DNA of 46,187 nt from Acutalibacteraceae bacterium (GTDB lineage: Bacteria > Bacillota > Clostridia > Oscillospirales > Acutalibacteraceae), in the NCBI GenBank assembly GCA_051880655.1, contig JBJEOJ010000103.1, positions 1 to 46,187 on the forward strand, read 5' to 3'. How positions within the stretch are numbered: the stretch's first letter is position 1; each line of letters starts with the position of its first letter. A program made the translations under genes and the position numbers. Below the pieces are notes generated by a model. The model was not told the DNA's origin. It worked only from the letters and a program-made list of their open reading frames with translations, and made no database searches. This document shows positions 3,946-46,187 of this stretch, piece by piece.

Positions 3946-4025
3946 TTGAATAAAATTGCACCCTATTGGGTGCGGCATACATTATTATATGTGATGAAAA
4001 TTAAAAAAAATCGCTCTGATTGTAC

Positions 4026-5151: not shown

Positions 5152-8004
5152 ATGAGTAAGAAAAATCGTCTGAAAAAGTCCGTTTCCGTTTTGCTTTCAT
5201 TGCTGATGTTGTTTAGTTTGTTTGTACCGGCTTCGGCGGCGGATGAAGCTGTTATGAGCGATGAAATTCTCACTGAAAATGAGTCCGAAATTTCCATGCG
5301 TTCTCAGGTTCCGCAATTTAATGACGGCGCTTCATATTCTCAGGATATCAGTCGTCTTGAGGATATAGTTGACATTGATGAATTCTCTCAATATCTTATT
5401 GACTCGTTCTATGACTGCCCGGGAAACAGCGTTGACATTTCGCAATTCGCCATACCGTATAGTTCTGACAATGCAACTGCGATATATCATTTGATTTGGT
5501 ATGAGATTCCCGAGCTTTTTCATATGTATAGTTTGGGATGCAGCTATAATTCATCAAGTAAAATGATTACTTCCATTCGCTGTTCGTCATATAGCTATAC
5601 AGCCGATGAATATCACGAAATGTATAAAAAAAGTGAAAAAGCGGCAAATGAAATGGTTGCTGATCTGGTTGACAGTGATCTTTCCGATATTGAAAAGGCT
5701 CTTCTTATTCATGACCGTATGATTGCTTTCTGCGAATATGATTATGGCAACTATCTGGCAGGCTCTATTCCGAGAACTTCAAGGAATATATACGGAGTTC
5801 TTGTTTTGGGCGATGCCGTTTGTCAGGGATATGTTATGGCTTATGAATACCTTCTCAGAAAAGTCGGCGTTGAGGTGCATTATATGAGCTCAGATGCGCT
5901 CAACCATGCATGGAACAACGTTTGCATTGACGGTGCGTGGTACTATGTTGATACGACATGGGATGATCCCGTATGGGATGTCAACGGCAGAGTACAGCAT
6001 ACAAACTTTCTCCAGTCATATGAAAAGTTCAGCGTTAAGCACAGCAAGGACGGGGAAACAGATTATGAGATTCTTGAACCGGCCAATTCCACTTACGATG
6101 AATTTTATTGGACAGATGTCAACGCCGGTTTCCAGTATCTGGACGGAAACTATTATTATATTGATACTTCAAACAATACGCTTAAAAAGACAAGAGATCT
6201 GACCGACAGTTCAAAAAGCGAGACATTGCTTTCTTTCGGAAGATGGACGATTAATTCGTCCGGTACATACTATAGCGATACTTATGCAAAACTGAGTAAT
6301 GACGGTCAGGCTCTGCTTTATTCGCTTCAGGACGGCGTATATAAATACAACATAACCACAGGCACAAGCGAGGCTGTATGGAAGCCGACAGCACCGAGCG
6401 AAATGTCAAATCCCTGCGTTTACGGATTTGACTTTGACGGCGGATACCTGATATGCGTATATAACAGCTCACCGAATTTTGATGCTGACACAAAGAACCT
6501 TTATACGCAGAAAAAGCTTTACGATATTAAGACGCCTTATGGTGAAATCACATCAACAAACGATGTTGCACAAAGCCAGACCGTAACGCTTACTCTTTCT
6601 GATAATGTTGAAGTTGACGGCTATTACTGGGGAAGCAATGCAGATTATACAAAAAACACCTATGCGCAAGTTACTTGCGAAAGTGTTGAAAAAACGGTTT
6701 CGCAGGCGGATACATATTATCTGACCGTTAAGGATACATCCGGAAACCTTTCCGAAACCGTGAGAATAACCATGTTTAAAACAACGCTTGATGCAAACGC
6801 GGGTTCGGTAACGCCTGCTTATGTTCTGACAGAAAGCGGCAAATCCTTTGTGCTTCCGTCAGCGCAAAGAAGCGGTTATAACCACCTCGGTTGGTCAGAC
6901 GGCAGTGATTCGGTGGTGACATATCAGGCAGGAGAGAGCTACGCTCCGTCAAAGAACGCTTCTTTGATAAGTATATGGAGTTGTAAGCACGAAAAGTATA
7001 ACAGTGAAATCACAACAGCGGCAACTTGCAGTGCAGAAGGTGTCATGACCTATACCTGCACGACCTGCGGTGAAACCTATACTGAGCCTGTTGAAAAGCT
7101 TCCTCACACGGTTGTAACAGATACGGCAGTTGCGGCAACTTGCACAACGCAGGGAAAAACCGAAGGAAGCCACTGCTCGGTCTGCGGCACAGTTCTTGTG
7201 GCTCAGGAAACGATAGCTGCAACAAATCACAGCTATACCGAAAGCGTTACAAAAGAAGCTACCTGTGCAGAAAAGGGTGTTGTGACACACATCTGCTCAA
7301 AGTGCGGCGATACCTACACAACGGACATTGACATGCTTCCTCACACGGTTGTAACAGATACGGCAGTTGCGGCAACTTGCACAACGCAGGGAAAAACCGA
7401 AGGAAGCCACTGCTCGGTTTGCGGTGCGGTTCTTGTGGCTCAGGAAACAGTACCTGTCAAAGAGCATGCTTTCGGTGAGGGAGTTGTTACAACGGCGGCA
7501 ACATGCAGCAAGGAAGGTGTTATGACCTATACCTGCACTGTCTGCGGTGGTACATATACCAAACCCATAGATAAAACGCCGCACACGATAGTAACAGATG
7601 CGGCAGTTGCGGCAACCTGCACCAAGGAGGGCAAAACCGAAGGCAGCCACTGCTCGGTTTGCGGTGAGGTTATAAAAGCGCAGAAGACAGTGCCCGTTAC
7701 GGAGCATACCTACACAACAGTTGTCGGTACGCCTGCCACTTGCACAAATGAGGGCATAATGATCATGACATGTACGGTTTGCGGTCAGTCACAGACACAG
7801 AAAATACCGCTTGCCGACCATAGTGACAGCGACGGCGACGGCATCTGCGACGAGTGCGGCAGCATAATGGAAAATCCGAGCGATAACTGCTCATGCATGT
7901 GCCACAAAACAGGCTTTGTCGGTTTTATCTATAAGATAATTCGTATTTTCTGGAAACTGTTCGGAACAAACAAGACCTGCGAGTGCGGAGTAAATCATTA
8001 TTGA
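5152..8004 (+). CDS. secreted transglutaminase-like (Cys-His-Asp) protein with His/Cys-rich ~40-aa repeats and a Cys-rich hydrophobic C-terminal tail
   Basis: Signal peptide MSKKNRLKKSVSVLLSLLMLFSLFVPASA. Transglutaminase core GDAVCQGY...NHAWNNV...DTTWDD. Seven H-x(9-12)-[AP]TC-x2-G-x5-C-x2-CG modules. Tail CSCMCHKTGFVGFIYKIIRIFWKLFGTNKTCECG. Confidence 0.85.
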   Translation: MSKKNRLKKSVSVLLSLLMLFSLFVPASAADEAVMSDEILTENESEISMRSQVPQFNDGASYSQDISRLEDIVDIDEFSQYLIDSFYDCPGNSVDISQFAIPYSSDNATAIYHLIWYEIPELFHMYSLGCSYNSSSKMITSIRCSSYSYTADEYHEMYKKSEKAANEMVADLVDSDLSDIEKALLIHDRMIAFCEYDYGNYLAGSIPRTSRNIYGVLVLGDAVCQGYVMAYEYLLRKVGVEVHYMSSDALNHAWNNVCIDGAWYYVDTTWDDPVWDVNGRVQHTNFLQSYEKFSVKHSKDGETDYEILEPANSTYDEFYWTDVNAGFQYLDGNYYYIDTSNNTLKKTRDLTDSSKSETLLSFGRWTINSSGTYYSDTYAKLSNDGQALLYSLQDGVYKYNITTGTSEAVWKPTAPSEMSNPCVYGFDFDGGYLICVYNSSPNFDADTKNLYTQKKLYDIKTPYGEITSTNDVAQSQTVTLTLSDNVEVDGYYWGSNADYTKNTYAQVTCESVEKTVSQADTYYLTVKDTSGNLSETVRITMFKTTLDANAGSVTPAYVLTESGKSFVLPSAQRSGYNHLGWSDGSDSVVTYQAGESYAPSKNASLISIWSCKHEKYNSEITTAATCSAEGVMTYTCTTCGETYTEPVEKLPHTVVTDTAVAATCTTQGKTEGSHCSVCGTVLVAQETIAATNHSYTESVTKEATCAEKGVVTHICSKCGDTYTTDIDMLPHTVVTDTAVAATCTTQGKTEGSHCSVCGAVLVAQETVPVKEHAFGEGVVTTAATCSKEGVMTYTCTVCGGTYTKPIDKTPHTIVTDAAVAATCTKEGKTEGSHCSVCGEVIKAQKTVPVTEHTYTTVVGTPATCTNEGIMIMTCTVCGQSQTQKIPLADHSDSDGDGICDECGSIMENPSDNCSCMCHKTGFVGFIYKIIRIFWKLFGTNKTCECGVNHY
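7098..7690 (+). repeat. in-frame tandem DNA repeat (period 237-240 bp) inside the 5152-8004 CDS
   Basis: 7098-7181 equals 7335-7418, about 84 nt identical by eye. A third, diverged copy starts near 7575. Confidence 0.85.
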
Positions 8005-19762: not shown

Positions 19763-19800
19763 AAAGCAGAAAAGTTTTTACCGGGCTTTTCTGCTTTTTT
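19763..19800 (+). terminator. rho-independent terminator of the decarboxylase operon
   Basis: AAAGCAGAAAAG / CTTTTCTGCTTT stem followed by a T-run. Confidence 0.85.
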
Positions 19801-19835
19801 GCATGTTTTGATTTGATGAAAAATTTTGACAATAT

Positions 19836-19864
19836 TTGACAAAACATAAAACAAACAATATAAT
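19836..19864 (+). promoter_or_regulatory. consensus promoter of small-toxin-like locus, copy 1
   Basis: TTGACA (19836-19841), 17-nt spacer, TATAAT (19859-19864). Confidence 0.7.
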
Positions 19865-19933
19865 AAAAAGGCAGTCACATGAAAGCGGCTGCCAAGATGA
19901 GTACTGTTATATAACGGTAGGCGGTTTGCTCCC

Positions 19934-20213
19934 AAAAGCAGACAAAAGCTGAACACGATACGGTTTTAAGCGATACATTTTCGCCGATACTGCGGCAGAA
20001 ATGCTCGAAATGCGTCAGCATTTCTGCGCTTTCTTTCTTGTCTCGACAAAAATCTATTCGCTTAAAACTTCGCAGAACCTGAAAGCAAATATTTTGCGTT
20101 CATTGTGCAGATTTGAGCCGCAGACATACTGCCGTATGTTAAGGCGAAAAGCTGTGCAAGGTGCGTAAAATATTTGTTTTCAGGCGTATCGTGTTCGACT
20201 TTTGTCTGCTTAC
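19934..20213 (+). other. 280-nt highly structured insertion in the 5' UTR (three-way junction of long helices)
   Basis: Absent from copy 2, which has a GTAA loop at this position. Helices: P1 19935-19962/20185-20211, P2 19963-19973/20058-20068, P3 19992-20005/20017-20029, P4 20078-20098/20164-20184. Several G-U pairs are valid only for plus-strand RNA. Confidence 0.6.
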
Positions 20214-20229
20214 GGGAGGTGATAAGCTT

Positions 20230-20313
20230 ATGGTTACATTTGAATTGCTTATAGCATTTACTGTAATGATAATCAATCTTATCACTCTTTGTTACTTAAT
20301 TTTTAAAAAGTAA
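20230..20313 (+). CDS. 27-aa hydrophobic peptide, candidate type I toxin (copy 1)
   Basis: MVTFELLIAFTVMIINLITLCYLIFKK. GGGAGG lies 10 nt upstream. Paralog at 33716-33808. Below the ORF-track size cutoff. Confidence 0.6.
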   Translation: MVTFELLIAFTVMIINLITLCYLIFKK

Positions 20314-20336
20314 CGACTGTTAAAAAAGTCGGAACA

Positions 20337-20430
20337 TAAAAATTAAGAAACACCGCCATCTCCAATTTGCGGTGTTTCTTAAAAGAACTCGTAAATATAG
20401 AGCAAACCGCTTATCGCAGTACTCTCCCCT
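20337..20430 (-). ncRNA. candidate antisense (antitoxin-like) sRNA, copy 1
   Basis: Predicted from the minus-strand promoter (20437-20464) and a 12-bp hairpin (20345-20380) followed by a U-run on the minus strand. Complementary to the 3' UTR of the peptide mRNA. Confidence 0.5.
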
Positions 20431-20436
20431 ATTACT

Positions 20437-20464
20437 ATTATATCACATATCCGCATTTTGTCAA
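20437..20464 (-). promoter_or_regulatory. antisense promoter, copy 1
   Basis: Minus strand: TTGACA (20459-20464), 16-nt spacer ending in TGa, TATAAT (20437-20442). Confidence 0.6.
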
Positions 20465-20485
20465 TCGGCAGAGTGCGGATTTTTC
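20449..20485 (+). terminator. terminator of the peptide mRNA, copy 1
   Basis: ATCCGCA / TGCGGAT stem plus TTTT. The loop contains the -35 element of the antisense promoter. Confidence 0.6.
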
Positions 20486-20490
20486 AATAA

Positions 20491-20521
20491 CTCCATACTC
20501 CACTCTCCAAACTCCACACTG
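20491..20521 (-). repeat. GTGGAG-type heptad array (purine-rich on the minus strand)
   Basis: Minus strand reads CAGTGTGGAG TTTGGAG AGTGGAG TATGGAG. It starts 8 nt after the stop of the minus-strand flavoprotein gene. Confidence 0.7.
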
Positions 20522-20529
20522 ATTTGCGT

Positions 20530-33603: not shown

Positions 33604-33631
33604 TTGACAAAAATAAATTTCTGTGTATAAT
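33604..33631 (+). promoter_or_regulatory. consensus promoter of small-toxin-like locus, copy 2
   Basis: TTGACA (33604-33609), 16-nt spacer, TATAAT (33626-33631). Same distance to the 5' hairpin as in copy 1. Confidence 0.7.
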
Positions 33632-33715
33632 AAAAAGGCAATCACAATAACGGTTGCCAAGTAGAGTACTGTTCATAACGGTAGGCGGTTTGCTCCCGTA
33701 AGGGAGGTGATACAT

Positions 33716-33808
33716 ATGATAACATTATCCGAACTTATATTGTTCACGACAATGATTGTCGCAATCGTATCACTTTGCTACGAAATCTTTAGTAACAAGA
33801 ATAAGTAA
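33716..33808 (+). CDS. 30-aa hydrophobic peptide, candidate type I toxin (copy 2)
   Basis: MITLSELILFTTMIVAIVSLCYEIFSNKNK. GGGAGG lies 8 nt upstream and is sequestered by CTCCC-GTAA-GGGAG (33693-33706). Confidence 0.6.
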   Translation: MITLSELILFTTMIVAIVSLCYEIFSNKNK

Positions 33809-33831
33809 GCAAAAGCTTAATTTTTTAACAT

Positions 33832-33924
33832 AAAAAATTAAGAAACACCGCCAGCTCTCCAAAGTTGCGGTGCTTCTTAAAACTGTGATTCTGGAGTAAA
33901 CCACTTATCGCAGTACTCTCTTGT
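33832..33924 (-). ncRNA. candidate antisense (antitoxin-like) sRNA, copy 2
   Basis: Minus-strand promoter at 33931-33958. Terminator hairpin at 33840-33878, whose single non-Watson-Crick pair is G-U on the minus strand but A-C on the plus strand. U-run follows. Confidence 0.5.
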
Positions 33925-33930
33925 ATTACT

Positions 33931-33958
33931 ATTATATCATATTATCGCACTTTGTCAA
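33931..33958 (-). promoter_or_regulatory. antisense promoter, copy 2
   Basis: Minus strand: TTGACA (33953-33958), 16-nt spacer ending in TGa, TATAAT (33931-33936). Confidence 0.6.
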
Positions 33959-33978
33959 GCAGACAGGGTGCGATTTTT
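33944..33978 (+). terminator. terminator of the peptide mRNA, copy 2
   Basis: ATCGCAC / GTGCGAT stem plus TTTT. Both arms differ from copy 1 but pairing is kept. Confidence 0.6.
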
Positions 33979-33986
33979 ACCCTTTA

Positions 33987-42605: not shown

Positions 42606-44699
42606 TTATCCTGCCGGAATCGGTGCGGAAAACTTTGAATAAAGGATTTTATCGCCTGCTTTTTTATAGGTACGGATTTTAAAATAATATTTTTTTGATG
42701 AGGACAGATTTGATTTATAATAGCTGTTTGTGCTGCCGTCGCTGATTTTTTTAATCTGCTTGTAACCTGAGTTTTTGGACTCGGACATATAAATGATATA
42801 GCCGCTGCAGCTCGTGGTTTTCCAACTAAGCTGAGCACCTCCGACGGATTTTTTTGCTTTGAGAGAAACACCGTTCGGCACGGTTGCCGTGACGACTTGT
42901 GTGAAGTTTTTACTGATATAGGTCTTTTCACCGATGGTTTTATATGCTCTGACAGCAAAAATATAATCCGTTCCCGATTTGAGATTGTTTATTTTTAAAC
43001 TTGTTTTGCTTGTGTTTGCAATCGTGGTGTATTGTTTGGTTTTCAGATAATATTTATATACTCTGTATTTTACGCCGCCGCTTACTTTTTTCCATGAAAG
43101 CGTGACGCTTGTGCTCGTTTGTTTTGCGGTAAGACTCGGAACATCGGGCGGAATAATTTTATAAGTAAGCGTCTTTTTGCCGCTGTAATTTCCTTTTAAA
43201 GTTACGGTGACACTGTATGAACCGATTGATTTTGAAGCTTTCGGAAACTTTGCGTCATAATCTTTTCCGGCTTTCAGCTTTGCACCTTTGCTGTCACTGA
43301 TTGTTAAGGTCGGCTTTTTGTCTTTCCCATTATAAACGAAAAAAACAGCCGAAAGAATAAGCTTATTAATTTTCGCAATTGTTATCTTGTCGGTTTTATT
43401 GCCACAGCGTGTGCAGTGCCTTGATTTATATCCGGCAGAATCGGTTGTTGCTTTTTTGTCGGTGGTATATTTACTTGAATAAGCATGACCGAGAGCGTTG
43501 ATATAATCTTTTTTCTGCGCTTTACAAACGGAGCAGGTCTTTGTTTTCTCGCCTTTTGCGGTGCAGGTCGGATTTTTGGTTGTCTTAAATTTACCGTAGG
43601 AGTGACCGTTTGCGGCAATTGAGGTTTCATCAGTAGTCTTGGAGCATCTGACACAGTGACGGGATTTTTTGCCCTGAGCGGTACAAGTCGGTTTTTTGTC
43701 AATGGTATATTTGCTTGAATAAGCATGACCGAGAGCGTCGACGGAATCTTTTTTCTGCGCTTTACAAACAGAACAGGTTTTTACTTTTTCACCTTTTGCG
43801 GTGCAGGTCGGATTTTTTGTTGTTTGATATTTACCGTAGGAGTGACCGTTTGCGGCAATTGAGGTTTCATCAGTAGTCTTGGAGCATCTGACACAGTGAC
43901 GGGATTTTTTACCCTGAGCTGTGCAGGTTGGCTTCTTGTCAACAGTGAAGGATTTTGAAAATTCATGACCTAAAGATGGAATAGACGTTATATTGCTCTT
44001 TTTGCCGCATCTTGTGCAGTGATTGGATTTGCTGCCTTGGGCTGTGCAGGTCGGCTCTTTGTCAACAACGGTTTTTTCGCTGTAGTTGTGGCCGAGAGCG
44101 GAAACATCTTTGGTTTCGGTCAGACCGCAAGTTTGGCAGACCAGAACGCTTTTTCCTGCCGAAGTGCAGGTGGCGGTTGTTCTTGTTGTTTTAAAGTTAT
44201 GACCGAGTGCAGGTATCGTTTCTGTCTTTTCGTCCGAACATTCGCAGACGAGTCTTTTGATTCCTTCGGTGTCGCAAGTCGGATTTCTTGTAATTTCTGT
44301 TTTATATGAATGAACATGGCTTTCGGAAAAAAGTTTAACATCAAAGCTTACACTGAATCCGTCAGCACTTTGTCTTGCTGCGAGATAATAGGTGTTGCCT
44401 GCTGTGAAATCATAGCGAATTAAAAAGTTGCTGCTTTCGCCGCTTGCTTCATCAACGGCAAGAACATTAAAATCCTCGTCGTAAACAAAGCCTACCGTAT
44501 CATAGTCGCTGATGCTTGTGAAACAATATCTGTCCGAAACGGCAGGAGTGAATTTTAAAATTGCAGTGTCATAGCCGCTCAGAGATACTGTTACGGTCTG
44601 ACCGGGTGAAATTTCACAAAACGCTTCTTGCGCATTTACAAAAAATATAAGACAGCAGGCAAGCAGAATACATACTGAAATTTTTAAAAATGTTTTCAT
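42606..44699 (-). CDS. secreted protein: PPC-like N-domain, about 9 His/Cys-rich ~40-aa repeats, Ig-like and two FN3 domains
   Basis: Signal peptide MKTFLKISVCILLACCLIFFVNA. Repeats follow GH-x-[FY]-x(6-9)-PTCT-x2-G-x5-C-x2-C. C-terminal LSWKKVSG..YRVY and LSWKTTS..YIIY FN3 signatures. Confidence 0.8.
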   Translation of the reverse strand: MKTFLKISVCILLACCLIFFVNAQEAFCEISPGQTVTVSLSGYDTAILKFTPAVSDRYCFTSISDYDTVGFVYDEDFNVLAVDEASGESSNFLIRYDFTAGNTYYLAARQSADGFSVSFDVKLFSESHVHSYKTEITRNPTCDTEGIKRLVCECSDEKTETIPALGHNFKTTRTTATCTSAGKSVLVCQTCGLTETKDVSALGHNYSEKTVVDKEPTCTAQGSKSNHCTRCGKKSNITSIPSLGHEFSKSFTVDKKPTCTAQGKKSRHCVRCSKTTDETSIAANGHSYGKYQTTKNPTCTAKGEKVKTCSVCKAQKKDSVDALGHAYSSKYTIDKKPTCTAQGKKSRHCVRCSKTTDETSIAANGHSYGKFKTTKNPTCTAKGEKTKTCSVCKAQKKDYINALGHAYSSKYTTDKKATTDSAGYKSRHCTRCGNKTDKITIAKINKLILSAVFFVYNGKDKKPTLTISDSKGAKLKAGKDYDAKFPKASKSIGSYSVTVTLKGNYSGKKTLTYKIIPPDVPSLTAKQTSTSVTLSWKKVSGGVKYRVYKYYLKTKQYTTIANTSKTSLKINNLKSGTDYIFAVRAYKTIGEKTYISKNFTQVVTATVPNGVSLKAKKSVGGAQLSWKTTSCSGYIIYMSESKNSGYKQIKKISDGSTNSYYKSNLSSSKKYYFKIRTYKKAGDKILYSKFSAPIPAG
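43380..43960 (-). repeat. in-frame tandem DNA repeat (period 240 bp) inside the 42606-44699 CDS
   Basis: 43589-43670 equals 43829-43910, about 82 nt identical by eye. Flanking units are similar but diverged. Confidence 0.85.
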
Positions 44700-46103: not shown

Positions 46104-46151
46104 CAGTGTGGAGCGTATATGAGTTTGGAGTTTGGAGTGTGGAGTGTGGAG
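46104..46151 (+). repeat. GTGGAG-type heptad array
   Basis: CAGTGTGGAG CGTATATGAG TTTGGAG TTTGGAG TGTGGAG TGTGGAG, 31 nt after the DUF2804-like stop. Shares the CAGTGTGGAG head with the 20491-20521 array on the minus strand. Confidence 0.7.
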
Positions 46152-46187
46152 TTAACCTCATTTTAAAGTTTGTGCAGTAGGGACACG

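Follow-up and report, generated by a model that had tools for sequence, protein, structure and literature searches.

REPINs are doublets of REP sequences that form hairpins and are mobilized by RAYT/TnpA-REP HUH transposases, and compensatory evolution of the arms of such hairpins in mobile DNA has been documented (Bertels & Rainey 2011, PMC3116915). Correia elements, found in Neisseria mRNAs, are cut there by RNase III (PMC2649163; PMC10969869), and the 'holin-like toxins' make up the TxpA family (Fozo et al. 2010, PMC2887945). Here we describe a palindromic insert in the leader of a TxpA/Hol_Tox-like toxin mRNA, encoded on a 46,187-nucleotide stretch of DNA from an Acutalibacteraceae bacterium (assembly GCA_051880655.1, contig JBJEOJ010000103.1, positions 1 to 46,187 of the forward strand; this whole stretch is hereafter the window). 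We incline to the view that the insert is a copy of a non-autonomous, structure-dependent mobile palindrome of ca. 275 bp, which is or recently was mobile in Acutalibacteraceae/Oscillospiraceae.

The insert is a genuine, independently folding three-way junction, located in the apical loop of the hairpin that sequesters the Shine-Dalgarno (SD) sequence of the toxin leader (Table 1). Such a 280-nt structure at 19934-20213 had been proposed from the DNA letters alone (hereafter the original prediction), and RNAfold recovered all of its listed helices at the same positions, with zero unpaired bases at the P1/P2 and P4/P1 junctions. In the window copy, P1 has 27 positions, including one C.A mismatch and one U.G pair, and a 2x2 internal loop lies between it and the CUCCC/GGGAG pairing of the host hairpin. 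The minimum free energy of the RNA from 19925 to 20225 is -139.2 kcal/mol, as compared with -77.7 +/- 5.2 kcal/mol for shuffled sequences (z = -11.95; 0 of 100 shuffles as stable); the minus strand is nearly as stable (-130.9 kcal/mol, z = -11.3), and the single-stranded DNA fold reaches -83.7 kcal/mol (z = -12.0). The unit common to other loci spans 19937-20210 (274 nt; the core is put at 274-276 nt if counted over the whole of P1, 19936-20211), and in the window it is flanked by a leftover AAA (5') and TAC (3'). As these two triplets lie outside the shared unit, the insert sits within a loop of ca. 6 nt; thus, the original prediction correctly placed it in the loop of the SD-sequestering hairpin, but its exact replacement of a GNRA tetraloop does not hold, even though a second toxin-antitoxin locus of the window (copy 2) does carry the CTCCC-GTAA-GGGAG arrangement, as had been stated. 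The element contains no promoter and no open reading frame (ORF) other than spurious ones. Covariance models of Rfam 15, applied to four copies, gave nothing at gathering score and chance-level matches only in E-value mode, in keeping with the earlier failure to match the fold to a known RNA family by eye, and no account of such an element family was present in the literature that we searched.

The original prediction had asked whether the element is repeated or always tied to this locus, and it proved to be present at other sites and in other genomes. Nine occurrences (seven full copies, one truncated copy, and one deletion remnant) were found in at least five assemblies from Acutalibacteraceae/Oscillospiraceae. 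They were reached by two routes, i.e., an exact P1 pattern and a protein bait made from a spurious 55-aa ORF inside the insert (20001-20168), which recovered called 'proteins' over further copies; both routes are biased, which weakens any statistics on copy number and context. An exact scan for window-type P1 arms in 185,579 species genomes (one per species) gave, besides three chance matches, three true loci (L003, L004, and L005), all in toxin leaders of a single Acutalibacteraceae metagenome-assembled genome (MAG), JBJFHW01. This MAG belongs to the same species as the window or to a very close one, the beta subunit of oxaloacetate decarboxylase (OAD) being 99% identical at the protein level and the flanks alignable. 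The 15 matches of the exact P1-arm scan in metagenome contigs were all due to chance, and the viral contigs gave none or chance matches only. As P1 is the fastest-evolving part of the element, such exact scans are blind to relatives and create a false impression of confinement to toxin leaders. No match was obtained by blastn of the insert against plasmids and phages, and nhmmer with the family profile gave no additional copies in the window or in 323 kb of locus sequence.

The L005 and L004 copies share the 274-nt core (AGCAGAC...GTCTGCT), with identities to the window copy (W1) of 98.2% and 96.4%, respectively. While these three copies are mutually 95-98% identical, identity between their host toxin-antitoxin loci, which encode different toxins, is only 63-78%; by this sequence comparison the element is a discrete unit, younger than its host loci. 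The full copies fall into two subfamilies that are 60-67% identical (W1, L005, L004, and L039 versus L046, L047, and L048), each with one member in the SD-hairpin loop of a toxin.

Gene calls across these copies deserve a remark of their own. Six public annotations or gene calls (P0124, P0125, P0126, P0128, P0129, and P0131), i.e., 'hypothetical proteins' of 61-171 aa, are translations across the non-coding element and have the motif ...MRQH[FY]S.F.LVSTKI.S.KT... in common, annotation artefacts that are useful as bait. Among Logan contigs of the same strain, one (L001) ends inside the element (window 19980) and another (L002) at the antitoxin terminator (window 20332). Short-read assemblies tend to break at such palindromes, and the element is thus probably under-represented in MAGs.

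Relatives do conserve the structure, a point on which the original prediction had laid weight, and the three-way junction fold is identical in all seven full copies. The RNAalifold consensus comprises 105 pairs, covariation contributing -16.5 kcal/mol, and 97.4% of the alignment cells are paired. Changes on both sides are seen in 46 of the 105 pairs, whereas column shuffles give 29.2 +/- 2.7 (0 of 500 reach 46) and sliding the partners leaves at most 12. Covariation is distributed over P1 (16 of 27 pairs), P2, and P4, in the main helix of which 13 of 29 pairs covary. Sequence conservation is lowest in P1 (33% invariant columns), which measures 26-28 bp in 7/7 full copies, and highest in the P2 arm (63% invariant columns). 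A variable, covarying P1 around a conserved interior is the reverse of what a transposase-bound terminal inverted repeat (TIR) would show and points to selection on a single-strand fold. Given the compensatory changes in every helix, the fastest-evolving terminal repeat, and the lack of target-site duplications (see below), we infer that the element propagates or persists through a folded single strand, single-stranded DNA being the likeliest by analogy with REPIN/RAYT or IS200/IS605-type systems.

Insertion into toxin leaders took place on at least three independent occasions (W1, the L003-L005 group, and L047), twice in the apical loop of the SD hairpin. L047 is a complete toxin-antitoxin cassette of the same family, with promoters and terminator confirmed, in which the element lies between GCUCCUUU and ACAGAGGAGG, i.e., in the apical loop of the SD-sequestering hairpin, and is reversed relative to the toxin as compared with the window copy. 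In L003-L005, the element is found ca. 25 nt upstream of the position seen in the window, outside the SD hairpin, between GAGTACTRCG and CATA(A)TAACGG. In full-length folds this insertion point coincides exactly with a joint in the helix that the toxin 5' leader is predicted to form with the 3' untranslated region (UTR), where the 3' UTR partner positions are nearly continuous across the insertion, with one position skipped. The toxin ORFs and antitoxin promoters are intact in all host loci. In the full-length toxin mRNA of the window, opening GGGAGG costs 7.99 kcal/mol with the insert and 7.77 or 9.71 kcal/mol with AAAA or GUAA in its place; the leader alone requires 11.18 kcal/mol with the insert versus 11.2 to 11.7 kcal/mol with either tetraloop. 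Whichever of the two RNAs is modelled, the element forms a domain of its own and does not disrupt the 5'-3' closing helix. As the opening energy is unchanged, the insert is structurally neutral, which disposes of the earlier suggestion of a lock domain that silences this toxin copy.

On these grounds the following course of events could be envisaged for a mobile palindrome. The element would enter DNA at single-stranded loops or helix joints, and in the window it may have landed in the apical loop, of ca. 6 nt, of the CUCCC/SD hairpin of a TxpA/Hol_Tox-like toxin mRNA. Since P1 closes on itself, the transcribed insert would form a side domain stacked on the host hairpin, with no change to SD occlusion or to the 5'-3' closing helix predicted for the toxin mRNA. 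It would thus be mainly a tolerated passenger in the toxin leader, with possible side effects through RNase III cleavage of the 21-27-bp duplexes or, in this subfamily and orientation only, premature termination at P3. A preference for loops and joints is supported by W1 and L047 at hairpin apices, the L003-L005 group at a helix joint, and the nested contexts of L038/L039 and L046; these palindrome pile-ups suggest repeated insertion into hairpin loops. A bolder and rather doubtful extension is that the family represents an undescribed class, in which a three-way-junction single strand is recognized by its shape and not by its ends and is integrated without duplication into hairpin apices or joints. 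Such shape-guided insertion would explain the occupancy of toxin SD-hairpin tips in both orientations, that of a long-range helix joint, and the nesting in L038/L039 and L046. In a stronger version of this extension, bacteria would hold on to toxin-leader copies, which would serve as an orientation-independent RNase III 'fuse'.

Regarding the nested sites themselves, the element in L038 (4425-4553) and L039 (332-410) lies within an outer pair of ca. 28 bp that includes AGGCAACCTCTAAAAAC and is an unrelated inverted repeat. In L046 (325-830), there are outer pairs GGGGCTGTCGCATTTAG / CTAAATGCGACAGCTCC and AAGCGTTTT / AAAACGCTT, plus a 15-bp perfect hairpin. No outer pairing surrounds the element in L048.

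Among known systems, the intervening sequences (IVS) of helices 25 and 45 of 23S rRNA offer the same kind of placement, as there too the apical loop of a host hairpin is replaced by a self-paired insert and the fold is preserved (PMC4990558, PMC2801512), just as W1 and L047 occupy the SD-hairpin loop with host hairpin and SD opening energy unchanged. IVS are sporadically distributed and regarded as selfish, and the stem of the insert is a substrate of RNase III. However, their host is rRNA and not a toxin mRNA leader or intergenic DNA, they are simple extended stems, some with an ORF, and excision by RNase III has been demonstrated for them. Correia/CREE and ERIC elements (PMC2649163, PMC10969869, PMC2229807) are likewise small, non-coding, bounded by terminal inverted repeats, and inserted in transcribed regions, where they form RNA hairpins that RNase III can cut, with a resulting change in the expression of the adjacent gene. 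Unlike our element, Correia makes a TA duplication and has conserved TIRs; the element is free of duplications and its TIR-equivalent covaries.

Mobile DNA at chromosomal type I toxin-antitoxin loci has a precedent in hok/sok of E. coli K-12, loci of which are reportedly disrupted by insertion sequences (IS) (Pedersen & Gerdes 1999). There a full IS inactivates hok/sok, whereas the element sits at a structure-neutral point and leaves toxin, antitoxin promoter, and SD hairpin intact.

RNase III also lies at the heart of the rival explanation that fares best, one we consider unlikely yet deserving of attention, i.e., that the element is an RNA module selected by the host, retained in toxin leaders as a cis substrate of RNase III or as a damper of expression, and spread between paralogous leaders by recombination. 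Three independent occupancies of toxin leaders (W1, L003-5, and L047) at positions that always preserve the host fold, the intactness of all host toxin ORFs and antitoxin promoters, and the restriction of window-type P1 arms to toxin leaders of the MAG in the exact scan are all in its favor. P1 and P4 offer 21-27 bp of near-perfect double-stranded RNA (dsRNA), RNase III cleavage of which is plausible by analogy, and the Correia elements in Neisseria mRNAs set a precedent (PMC2649163; PMC10969869). As P1 forms whichever way the element is inserted, the effect would be the same in both orientations. RNase III is also reported to be central to the silencing of TxpA-type toxins in Bacillus subtilis (Durand et al. 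2012). However, at least four copies (L038, L039, L046, and L048) are found outside toxin loci, in intergenic DNA, a simple RNase III handle would need neither a conserved P2/P3 core nor covariation of the inner helices, and SD occlusion is unchanged by the insert.

A classical miniature inverted-repeat transposable element (MITE), i.e., an internally deleted IS moved as double-stranded DNA by a TIR-binding transposase, would account for terminal inverted repeats of 26-28 bp, the small size (ca. 275 bp), the non-coding nature, and the dispersal of copies over several genomes in both orientations. However, no direct repeat indicative of a target-site duplication is seen at the junctions of W1, L004, L005, L039, L046, L047, and L048. 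Conserved TIRs shared with a parent IS are missing as well; the terminal repeats vary more than any other part and covary, around a conserved interior, the opposite of transposase-bound TIRs. Nor did scans of genomes, metagenomes, and viral sequences bring up a longer element with the same ends, although these demanded exact matches and a diverged parent could have escaped them. We thus regard a classical MITE as improbable. Of the options listed in the original prediction, a mobile structured element with MITE-like nested inverted repeats nonetheless comes closest, without the duplication and conserved TIRs that the MITE label entails. The marks it gave of a plain DNA MITE are similarly divided, as copies are dispersed and the G.U pairs lack a significant strand bias, but target-site duplications are absent and the pairing covaries strongly.

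REPINs are the nearest in kind, being non-coding, extragenic, long hairpins made of inverted halves; compensatory changes maintain these hairpins, which are believed to be mobile in the form of folded single-stranded DNA. Moreover, REPIN excision footprints are reported to be asymmetric, which the asymmetric remnant in L003 resembles. There (3980-4020, minus strand), a 41-nt hairpin stands at the position of the element and consists of the full right P1 arm plus the first 14 nt of the left arm; from its sequence it looks like an internal deletion of the palindrome type, i.e., an asymmetric deletion or excision footprint with CG microhomology. REPINs differ, however, in being simple hairpins of ca. 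80-120 nt versus three arms and ca. 275 nt, in having conserved REP 16-mers at their ends whereas the ends of the element are its least conserved part and the conserved sequence is internal (P2/P3 arm), and in reaching tens to hundreds of copies, mostly in Proteobacteria, in contrast to few known copies in Clostridia. No RAYT was linked to the element, and inspection of the ORFs around it found no HUH Y1 transposase gene in the 46-kb window. The family is therefore REPIN/MITE-like but distinct, from MITEs by its lack of duplication and its variable ends, and from REPINs by its three arms, conserved interior, and different clade.

The strand on which selection acts bears on a further alternative, in which the element, read in the toxin mRNA sense, would be a structured RNA, either free-standing or cis-regulatory (sensor, riboswitch-like leader, or ribozyme). 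The original prediction had counted at least four G-U pairs on the plus strand that would be A-C on the minus strand. We find seven plus-strand G.U pairs in the window copy, but also three C.A mismatches, which are G.U on the minus strand, and the asymmetry is thus weaker than claimed. Two U.G pairs, both in the P4 arm, are fixed in 7/7 copies, as is one plus-strand C.A mismatch (G.U on the minus strand). The plus strand is the more stable one in six of the seven copies, and its consensus (alifold) value is -124.4 versus -113.7 for the minus strand. Wobble columns number 22 versus 8 (p = 0.016) when the structure is derived from the plus strand, a derivation that biases the test, and 22 versus 13 (p = 0.18) for the union of plus- and minus-strand consensus pairs. 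Relative to local transcription, the element is sense in W1, L004, L005, and L046 and antisense in L047 and L048. A weak strand preference intrinsic to the element is possible, but selection at the RNA level in the sense of the toxin mRNA, as proposed originally, finds no confirmation, given the opposite orientation in L047, the occurrence of non-toxin copies in both orientations, and the outcome of the unbiased wobble test.

A structured RNA would fit the very strong covariation, the conserved loops and unpaired sequences (AAUGC-GUCA-GCAUU, CAUAC-UGNC-GUAUG, and the junction), the fixed U.G pairs, and the greater stability of the plus strand in most copies. However, its orientation with respect to flanking transcription is not conserved, it has neither a promoter of its own nor a match in Rfam, the unbiased strand test is non-significant with a plus-strand C.A mismatch fixed in every full copy, and helices of 21-27 perfect bp are atypical of ligand-binding RNAs. 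We therefore hold this alternative to be quite improbable, and the ligand- or protein-sensing leader of the original prediction, for which neither context nor orientation is conserved, is given up with it.

Still less probable is an invertible, phase-variable switch, in which an invertase would flip the segment between the P1 repeats and so bring the terminator-like P3 hairpin in or out of the toxin sense. The 27-bp flanking inverted repeats and the opposite orientations of W1 and L047 at the same structural site are compatible with it, and P3 followed by UUUCUUUCUU does score like genuine neighbouring terminators, in the plus orientation only and only in the window-type subfamily. The scoring formula follows d'Aubenton-Carafa 1990. 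On the other hand, the two orientations are seen at different loci of different organisms and never at one locus, internally palindromic arms would be unnecessary, the repeats of invertons are normally conserved in sequence, and the element has no internal promoter. The second subfamily, moreover, has no U-tract after P3; we thus treat the terminator-like feature as incidental and have dropped internal termination as a mechanism. A chance palindrome or an assembly artefact, to which the break of an independent Logan contig within the element (window 19980) might point, is effectively refuted by a z of -12 and by the independent assembly of the same, covarying sequence in several MAGs and metagenomes.

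Several observations weigh against a mobile palindrome. The strong covariation, the two fixed U.G pairs, and the stability of the plus strand would also suit a functional RNA, and no transposase or recombinase partner was found. Filled and empty versions of one site were likewise not found; relatives at 90-95% identity carry other genes at the orthologous position, and for the neighbour gene of L005 the database has no close relatives. Survivorship could also explain why copies seem to prefer loops, since those landing at other points of a toxin leader may be lethal. Finally, the case is weakened by there being only nine occurrences, reached by biased routes, and the presence of the window-type P1 arm in the toxin leaders of one MAG alone could mean host-level selection and not free mobility.

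Other known kinds of element were compared and set aside. A derivative of IS200/IS605 (PATE) would fit the lack of duplication, but there is no fixed tetra- or pentanucleotide at the left end, no flanking tetranucleotide is conserved, the bases beside the ends changing from site to site on either strand, the ends of the element pair together (P1), and neither has a local subterminal hairpin. A retron msr-msd is similar in shape, yet no reverse transcriptase is found beside the window copy or the other copies. A single-strand origin of the sso type, attC, and hammerhead or other ribozymes each fail a defining feature.

The host locus (copy 1) and copy 2 are type I toxin-antitoxin cassettes with perfect sigma-70 promoters on both strands. 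The features that define this type are present, i.e., a hydrophobic ORF of 26-32 aa, a convergent gene for an antisense RNA, overlapping the toxin mRNA, and terminators. As the toxin terminator lies beyond the antisense promoter, the toxin 3' UTR spans the whole antitoxin gene and is fully complementary to the antitoxin. The small hydrophobic peptide, the convergent antisense RNA over the toxin 3' region, the strong consensus promoters on both strands, and the SD-sequestering hairpin are as in TxpA/RatA systems. However, the toxin ORF matches Pfam Hol_Tox below threshold (20.7 bits versus a cut-off of 23.3; 20-21 bits for the peptides overall), which makes the family assignment tentative. The sequence at the 5' end of the convergent antitoxin RNA recurs in the toxin 5' leader (GAGUACUG..AUAA..GGCGGUUUGC; window 19870-20488 and 33638-33982, L003-L005), and both the leader block and the antitoxin 5' end are complementary to the toxin 3' UTR. 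In full-length folds, 5/5 loci are predicted to form a 5'-3' closing helix; this helix and the repetition of the toxin leader in the antitoxin are, unlike the foregoing, our deductions and not documented features of the TxpA/RatA family. By this shared complementarity, the antitoxin would, in the model, compete with the toxin leader for one site, and we know of no description of such competition for TxpA-type systems.

Table 1 Features of the host locus and the insert in the window, and copies of the element in other assemblies (W1 = window copy)
Feature	Position	Strand	Details
Toxin mRNA promoter	19836-19864	+	TTGACA-17-TATAAT, 12/12 matches
Toxin leader, 5' part	19870-19933	+	5' hairpin; GAGTACTG...ATAACGGTAGGCGGTTTGC block repeating the antitoxin 5' sequence; anti-SD CUCCC at 19929-19933
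Insert (W1)	19934-20213	+	280 nt between CUCCC and GGGAG: AAA + 274-nt shared core + TAC
P1, 5' arm	19936-19962	+	Closing helix and terminal inverted repeat; pairs with 20185-20211
P1, 3' arm	20185-20211	+	
P2 arm	19963-20068	+	Contains P3; P2 = 19963-19973 with 20058-20068, 11 bp, further pairing inward
P3 hairpin and following tract	19992-20039	+	Hairpin 19992-20029 (-18.1 kcal/mol), then TTTCTTTCTT
P2-P4 junction	20069-20077	+	Single-stranded, 9 nt, UUCGCAGAA
P4 arm	20078-20184	+	Long hairpin: base 20078-20098 with 20164-20184 (21 bp), inner helices, conserved CATAC-TGNC-GTATG tip; encloses TTGTGCAG/CTGTGCAA and ACATAC-TGCC-GTATGT
Shine-Dalgarno GGGAGG	20214-20219	+	GGGAG pairs with CUCCC 19929-19933, stacks under P1
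Toxin ORF	20230-20313	+	Intact, 27 aa, MVTFELLIAFTVMIINLITLCYLIFKK
Antitoxin RNA terminator hairpin	20345-20380	-	T-run on minus strand only; from sequence reading
Antitoxin RNA promoter	20437-20464	-	TTGACA-16-TATAAT, 12/12 matches, with TG
Toxin mRNA terminator	20449-20485	+	
Copy 2 toxin-antitoxin locus	33604-33985	+	No insert, empty-site reference; promoter 33604-33631; CTCCC-GTAA-GGGAG 33693-33706; toxin ORF 33716-33808 (peptide not on record); antitoxin promoter 33958-33931
L039			Acutalibacteraceae MAG; upstream of ABC ATPase gene; 89% identical to W1
L038			Oscillospiraceae MAG; adjoins GDPD gene; truncated by contig end; 29-nt deletion in P2
L046			JGI metagenome; between convergent genes
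L048			ENA metagenome assembly; between two co-directional genes, adjoins ychF-like gene
L047			ENA metagenome assembly; within toxin leader

The same cassette family is present in nine phage or prophage contigs (L028-L036, IMG/VR), as a moron between structural genes; their leaders have 60-75 nt and SD-hairpin loops of 4-6 nt (AAAA, GACATC, and others), and the element occurs in 0/9. In the window, the cassette is flanked by genes for the OAD beta subunit and an FMN reductase, and between these two genes the conspecific MAG lacks the entire copy 1 cassette and not the insert alone. Only the right end of the cassette (TTTGTCAATCGGCAGAGTGCGGATTTTT) remains there (window 19790-20470 versus L024 5189-5324), and the indel is bounded by inverted -35 boxes, TTGACAA / TTGTCAA. 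The absence of the cassette from the MAG site and these boundaries indicate that it is gained or lost between strains.

Other repeats were seen near the cassettes. A second dispersed repeat, of GGAGTGTGGAGT-like units, is found at window 20488-20528 and 46114-46154 (inverted), L003 4239-4305, and L024 ca. 5260-5300; it adjoins toxin-antitoxin cassettes and gene ends and is present also at the cassette-free MAG site. In L005 (100-230, minus strand), a segment gctgcattttgtcaagccgattgaggaataacgctg that includes the antitoxin -35 box stands twice in tandem downstream of the cassette. Elsewhere in the window, tandem direct repeats with a period of ca. 240 nt are seen at 7012-7696 (three copies, 75-80% identity) and 43447-43926 (two copies, 90% identity), and probably represent repeated protein domains.

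If the reading of a mobile palindrome is correct, the element would found a new non-autonomous family in Clostridia of the gut and rumen, in which repeats of this kind have received hardly any study, with the three-armed fold as its conserved feature. A covariance model built from the family alignment would correct the spurious gene calls over its copies. The toxin-leader copies amount to a natural experiment, showing which positions tolerate 275 extra nucleotides and offering a way to see whether long cis duplexes feed RNase III. Shape-guided insertion, if true, would hint at how the nested architecture of the element itself arose, and the family could open single-strand, shape-directed insertion to study beyond the REP/RAYT systems of Proteobacteria.

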